Shown: piece after piece, positions 46,898-47,026 of the stretch
Layout: each line of letters starts with the position of its first letter
Position numbering within the stretch: position 1 is the first letter of the stretch
Source: Escherichia coli
GTDB taxonomy: Bacteria > Pseudomonadota > Gammaproteobacteria > Enterobacterales > Enterobacteriaceae
NCBI RefSeq assembly: GCF_003334785.1
Contig: NZ_QOWV01000002.1
DNA: 64,000 nucleotides
Direction: 5' to 3' (one strand)
Made by a program: the position numbers and the translations under genes
Notes under the pieces: generated by a model
What the model was told of the DNA's origin: nothing
Database searches by the model: none
What the model saw: only the letters and a program-made list of their open reading frames with translations

Positions 46898-47026
46898 AAA
46901 CGACTCGGGGTGCCCTTCTGCGTGAAGGCTGAGAAATACCCGTATCACCTGATCTGGATAATGCCAGCGTAGGGAAGTCACGGACCACCAGGTCATTGCT
47001 TCTTCACGTTATGGCAGGAGCAAACT
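46898..47026 (+). ncRNA. TPP (thi-box) riboswitch in the thiM leader
   Basis: cgactcggggtgcccttctgcgtgaaggctgagaaatacccgtatcacctgatctggataatgccagcgtagggaag matches the thiM TPP aptamer I recall, including the CUGAGA thi-box; sits immediately upstream of the thiM start. Confidence 0.9.

Follow-up and report, generated by a model that had tools for sequence, protein, structure and literature searches.

The segment at 46898-47026 of the window (the whole stretch of DNA analyzed, 64,000 nt of Escherichia coli from assembly GCF_003334785.1, contig NZ_QOWV01000002.1) is, with near certainty, the E. coli thiM TPP riboswitch, the cis-acting leader RNA of the thiMD operon. This riboswitch is already known; the case is an ordinary one to which we add nothing new, and the description "well known rather than novel" in an earlier note on this DNA holds, the sequence being identical to the thiM leader of MG1655. 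The computations reported here concern TPP family membership, gene context, identity with K-12, the two exclusive pairings and the conservation of pairing, while TPP binding, repression in vivo and the Rho step are taken from the literature.

Locus, gene context and promoter

The segment lies in the gap between rcnR (46532..46804, plus strand) and an open reading frame starting at 47027; the upstream neighbors of the leader are rcnR and, in divergent orientation, rcnA. The TPP aptamer is located in the sense-strand 5′ leader, its 3′ end 35 nt ahead of the thiM AUG, and thiD comes next on the same strand, overlapping thiM via ATGA.

46842..46870, plus strand: predicted sigma-70 promoter of thiMD, TTTACA, 17-nt spacer, TACCAT (consensus scan, 9/12 matches)
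46877, plus strand: transcription start (+1) in the numbering of Bastet et al. 2017, inferred from the numbering in PMC5499598
47027..47815, plus strand: thiM (hydroxyethylthiazole kinase), the first regulated gene (TIGR00694, 341 bits versus a cutoff of 256; RefSeq annotation thiM)
47812..48612, plus strand: thiD (HMP / HMP-P kinase), the second gene of the operon (TIGR00097, 363 bits)

We placed +1 from the mutants described in PMC5499598, namely U152A in the AUG and G142C in the ribosome-binding site (RBS), the latter corresponding to window 47018. With the AUG at 47027-47029, the transcript would begin at 46877, which is MG1655 2185451, and the 3′ end of the predicted −10 hexamer lies 7 nt ahead of this implied start. 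The control of thiMD that the earlier note asserted is borne out by ThiM and ThiD directly downstream and by a leader identical to that of K-12, where regulation has been shown experimentally (PMC1920254, PMC5499598).

A 68-aa ATG reading frame on the minus strand (46790..46996) runs antisense to the promoter and aptamer. We judged it probably spurious, because none of the RefSeq records examined includes it and the RNA on the opposite strand is invariant.

The thiM leader contains a complete TPP aptamer

We scanned the whole 64-kb window with the Rfam 15 covariance models at gathering thresholds, the check that the earlier note had proposed, and the outcome for the TPP family is clearly positive. 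RF00059 matches at 46896..46992 on the plus strand with 71.2 bits versus a gathering score of 54.3 (E = 5.1e-12), spanning model positions 1-105 of 105, and no second TPP match occurs on either strand of the window. Eleven model positions are deleted in the alignment, and the thiM aptamer is without the optional P3a extension. Helices P1-P5 form two sensor arms on a three-way junction.

46896..46992, plus strand: TPP aptamer (THI element; RF00059, same span annotated by PGAP)
46902-46905 with 46976-46979, plus strand: P1 (pairs of the Rfam alignment)
46906-46909 with 46939-46942, plus strand: P2 (pairs of the Rfam alignment)
46911-46918 with 46924-46936, plus strand: P3, C46915 bulged (adjusted Rfam pairs)
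46948-46951 with 46970-46973, plus strand: P4 (pairs of the Rfam alignment)
46954-46957 with 46964-46967, plus strand: P5 (pairs of the Rfam alignment)
46929-46934, plus strand: CUGAGA motif in J3/2, pyrimidine-sensor side, nt 38-43 in 165-thiM numbering (CTGAGA in the sequence; invariant in 74/74 Enterobacterales leaders)
46947-46969, plus strand: thi-box core ACCTGATCTGGATAATGCCAGCG in P4/P5, pyrophosphate-sensor side (read in the sequence; invariant or nearly so in the alignment)

Of the 23 model pairs, 21 are canonical, the exceptions being the outermost pair of P1 and one pair of P3. The latter is resolved by bulging C46915; we therefore replaced the Rfam register for distal P3, which contains a C·A mismatch, with the bulged register, which is canonical and suits other species. 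Both ligand-pocket sequences are present, CUGAGA in J3/2 and the thi-box ACCUGAUCUGGAUAAUGCCAGCG, so the aptamer that the earlier note recognized in the leader, thi-box included, is visible by its motifs as well as by its score. The bases that contact TPP, including the role of CUGAGA, are known from published crystal structures. In chemical and enzymatic probing, TPP-dependent changes were observed at G40-U46 (PMC1920254).

Identity with K-12 and spread in E. coli

Every base of window 46805-47200 agrees with the complement strand of MG1655 2185128-2185523 (100% identity), where the thiM AUG is at 2185301. Over the longer interval 45000-49328 we find three mismatches to MG1655 in 4329 bases, none of them within 46805-47200. 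Specific TPP binding has been reported for the identical K-12 RNA (PMC1920254, PMC5499598), and since the sequences are identical, the results of both studies apply directly to the leader in the window. Of 5426 complete E. coli genomes searched by megablast, 5425 have the leader, and in 4368 of these 5425 it is at least 99% identical.

The statement in the earlier note that ORF-based annotation would miss the riboswitch stands in part. The MG1655 record NC_000913.3 lists no riboswitch feature at the thiM leader, whereas in RefSeq genomes annotated by PGAP a "riboswitch / TPP riboswitch" feature maps exactly to 46896..46992. In terms of genome annotation, the note thus correctly picked out a non-coding regulator that would be skipped by a pass over ORFs alone and that covariance-model pipelines such as PGAP already mark.

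Two mutually exclusive pairings in the expression platform

To describe the expression platform we folded region 46896-47045 twice, once with the aptamer pairs taken from the Rfam alignment enforced and once unconstrained.

46962..46980, plus strand: anti-anti-SD, the 3′ strands of P5, P4 and P1, pairing with 46997-47016 without TPP (unconstrained MFE; equals nt 71-86 with nt 108-125 of PMC1920254)
46983..46994, plus strand: small hairpin GACC / GGUC leading from the aptamer to the anti-SD (folds)
46996..47003, plus strand: anti-SD UUGCUUCU, pairing with 47016-47023 at a probability of ~1 with the aptamer enforced; its CUUC core is invariant in 74/74 leaders
47016..47020, plus strand: Shine-Dalgarno (SD) AGGAG, 6 nt ahead of the AUG; GGA invariant in 74 species

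With the aptamer enforced, which represents the TPP-bound state, the anti-SD pairs with AGGAGCAA at 47016-47023 and the SD has a pairing probability of ~1.0. In the same fold, 46985-46994 pairs with codons 3-7 (47035-47045) instead of forming the GACC / GGUC hairpin, and the resulting stem encloses the AUG. In the unconstrained minimum free energy structure, the aptamer segment 46962-46980 is paired with 46997-47016, and the GGA of the SD has a pairing probability of ~0.3. Comparison of the constrained and free folds shows that the anti-SD:SD and anti-anti-SD:anti-SD helices are mutually exclusive and coupled to the 3′ strand of the aptamer. By equilibrium MFE, shuffled sequence folds just as stably as the leader (z = −0.22), a value that is uninformative for a bistable RNA and that we left out of the evidence.

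These pairings agree with the mechanism published for the identical RNA. Chemical and enzymatic probing by Rentmeister et al. (PMC1920254) indicated that, as long as TPP is absent, nt 71-86 are paired with nt 108-125, leaving the SD at nt 126-130 accessible, and that TPP frees the anti-SD so that the SD becomes sequestered. Nucleotide 1 of that study corresponds to window 46892, which brings the published helices into exact coincidence with the computed ones; the loop of the 46983-46994 hairpin overlaps the nt 95-101 target region of PMC1920254.

Conservation across Enterobacterales

A ThiM scan of species-representative genomes returned 80 loci, mostly from Enterobacterales, and from these an alignment was made of 74 distinct thiM leaders, with one genome per species. 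No change occurs among the 74 in the aptamer core, in the anti-SD CUUC or in the SD GGA; the SD reads GGAG in 73 leaders and GGAA in one (L070). For the OFF-state structure, 91.7% of cells are canonical, compared with 34-59% when the partners are slid, and for the ON-state helix the corresponding values are 78% and 33-55%. The ON-state core GGGAAG:CUUCUU is kept in 70-74 of the 74 leaders.

Double-sided changes affect eight pairs of the OFF-state structure, three of which lie in distal P3 (U-A to C-G, U-A to A-U and C-G to U-A). In the 46983-46994 hairpin, three of four pairs change on both sides, a count limited by alignment gaps. Most aptamer pairs never vary in the sampled genera and are thus uninformative on covariation. 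Covariation support is consequently real but thin: compensatory changes are confined to distal P3 and the linker hairpin because the aptamer hardly varies within Enterobacterales.

SD pairing increases in 47 of the 74 leaders when the aptamer is enforced (Wilcoxon p = 1e-4), although under equilibrium folding the two-state contrast is strong only for platforms of the Escherichia, Kluyvera and Klebsiella type. In many non-Escherichia genera, SD pairing is ~0.7 whether the aptamer is enforced or free, and equilibrium folding does not separate the states; in platforms of the Kosakonia, Cedecea and Pantoea type, both ensembles consist largely of structures with a long CCUGCCCGGC / GCCGGGCAGG helix. 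Because folding fails to separate the states in many other genera, the exact platform geometry is limited to the Escherichia, Kluyvera and Klebsiella type.

Many genera, among them Kosakonia, Cedecea, Enterobacter and Pantoea, have a differing linker and platform (L010, L014, L038 and further non-Escherichia leaders; alignment columns ~116-165), as in GAUGCCUGYCCGGCAUC...GCCGGRCAGGAG, a sequence that can form a ~10-bp helix sequestering the AGG of the SD. At five thiM loci, in contrast to the rest of those checked, no Rfam TPP match at the gathering score was found within 1.2 kb upstream. These belong to Pseudocitrobacter (L027, L028) and Providencia (L037, L051, L058), and could reflect a differing operon arrangement or loss of the riboswitch.

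Regulatory model and alternative explanations

In the model that we favor for the window, when TPP is scarce the 3′ portion of the aptamer (46962-46980) would pair with the anti-SD region (46997-47016), leaving the SD at 47016-47020 accessible and allowing thiM to be translated. Binding of TPP would lock helices P1, P4 and P5, and the freed anti-SD (46996-47003) would then pair with the SD region (47016-47023) as the 46985-46994/47035-47045 stem closes round the start codon, so that initiation of translation would be blocked. The untranslated mRNA would in turn expose a C-rich rut site at codons ~17-25, and Rho would terminate transcription within or just after codons 20-34, lowering thiMD mRNA as well. 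The elements of this last step were converted from PMC5499598.

47077-47086, plus strand: rut, nt 201-210
47107, 47113 and 47138, plus strand: Rho termination sites, nt 231, 237 and 262

The span 46898-47026 given in the earlier note takes in the aptamer and the expression platform and stops immediately ahead of the AUG. The functional unit is somewhat larger, with a transcript start at ~46877, an AUG-sequestering stem reaching to ~47045 and Rho-dependent elements reaching to ~47138.

The closest alternative is a purely translational TPP riboswitch, in which SD sequestration is the sole output and the mRNA level is uncontrolled. This is the classical model of PMC1920254, and the SD/anti-SD pairings are the only switch elements computable from the leader itself. 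Bastet et al. (PMC5499598) found that TPP represses a translational fusion of six codons and that it also lowers thiMD mRNA, a repression at the mRNA level that requires thiM codons 20-34 and is lost with bicyclomycin or in rho R66S. In that study, nt 201-210 were protected by Rho, and transcription terminated at nt 231, 237 and 262. The window has the identical C-rich, G-poor stretch, with 36% C and 8% G at 47077-47101, the Rho dependence itself being drawn from the literature on the identical sequence. We therefore regard a purely translational switch as very unlikely.

Many TPP riboswitches, for example many Bacillus thi leaders, act via intrinsic terminators, and general knowledge of the family, not specific to this locus, is what speaks for transcription attenuation through a ligand-controlled intrinsic terminator. 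At thiM the candidate elements are missing. We found zero terminator-like stems with a U-run in 46500-47300 on either strand, where shuffled sequence averages 1.1; by inspection of the sequence there is no U-tract from the aptamer to the AUG; and no Rho-independent terminator was evident in PMC5499598. Given the result of the scan, we rejected this explanation as exceedingly improbable. That the match is a chance resemblance or a decayed, functionless relic has practically no likelihood, no support for it having been found, and is refuted by the Rfam score (a match over the whole model, E = 5e-12), by the conservation of the core over 74 species and of the leader among E. coli genomes, and by its correct position and strand ahead of thiamine salvage genes. 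The E. coli thiM riboswitch with translational and Rho-dependent outputs is thus the reading we retain.

Islands inserted in the aptamer in other E. coli

The search of E. coli genomes, for which the leader query was 138 nt, also returned unusual arrangements. For 87 genomes, under 80% of the 138-nt leader is covered by the best match, and there are ~300 more leader-matching places than there are genomes (5425). Strains PSJ-23, STLEFF_29 and C each carry an island (7.7-11.7 kb) that separates rcnR from thiM, at occupied sites L084 19922-31780, L087 12269-20082 and L088 17907-29172; window 46894-46975 represents the empty site. Each island has a tyrosine integrase first, followed by cargo that varies: TIR, NACHT and a type III restriction subunit; an HNH endonuclease; or SIR2, ImmA/IrrE and HigB. 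One island integrase matched 31 genomes by megablast. Direct repeats without any mismatch, 79, 82 and 73 bp long, flank the islands, and all fall inside window 46894-46975, that is, within the invariant aptamer core. The thiM-proximal repeat copy rebuilds a full riboswitch (71.2 bits) preceded by island DNA, not the native promoter, and the promoter-proximal copy, which scores 49.7 bits in PSJ-23, has neither the 3′ strand of P1 nor the expression platform and reads into int. Strain ExPEC retains the leader up to window 46972, beyond which lies a truncated integrase; a degraded site is seen in L082/L083.

We consider it fairly probable that the aptamer core (~46894-46975) doubles as an attachment site for small tyrosine-integrase islands with cargo of the anti-phage-defense type. 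The island would supply a replacement 5′ half of the aptamer, such that thiM keeps a complete riboswitch without its native promoter, and the native promoter with a P1-less aptamer reads into the integrase gene. The ~300 extra matches suggest that ~5% of E. coli genomes have an occupied thiM riboswitch. A literature search found no description of islands inside the thiM riboswitch, which is no proof that they are unpublished. Mobile elements are known to target highly conserved structured-RNA genes (tRNA, tmRNA); if our reading is correct, this targeting extends to a riboswitch, a point of modest interest, and a few percent of E. coli strains would have rewired thiMD regulation.

Other RNA families in the window

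The Rfam scan also returned matches elsewhere in the window. The OrzO-P type I antitoxin sRNA (RF02083) matches at full length at 27845-27920 on the minus strand with 101 bits, in the yehK-yehL intergenic region, where the MG1655 record has nothing annotated; beside the match we saw no ZorO-like small hydrophobic ORF of 20 aa or more. The Peptidase-S11 RNA motif (RF03039) matches at 7329-7409 on the plus strand with 72.8 bits and is a candidate cis-regulatory leader, presumably with pbpG downstream, judging by the K-12 map position. The match to naRNA4 (RF02564) at 54847-54917 on the plus strand (64.5 bits) resembles a REP/BIME repeat element in its paired hairpins.

Comparison with known TPP riboswitches

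The E. coli thiM TPP riboswitch is a textbook case and among the best-studied riboswitches, investigated since 2002 and part of the first report of a TPP riboswitch; the "165 thiM" RNA was used in the original in-line probing, and the complex of the thiM aptamer with TPP has been crystallized. The leader in the window is the same as that of K-12 in its aptamer, anti-SD, SD, AUG stem and rut region, without any difference. E. coli thiC and thiB (tbpA) share with it the aptamer family and the ligand and, as reported in PMC11487190 and PMC10578472, translational control together with effects at the mRNA level; they differ in being other loci, outside the window, with other expression platforms. 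Riboswitches of the Bacillus type have the same aptamer fold and ligand and differ in output, which there is an intrinsic terminator. In the thiM window, with neither a terminator hairpin nor a U-tract, the output is instead an SD-sequestering helix and then Rho.
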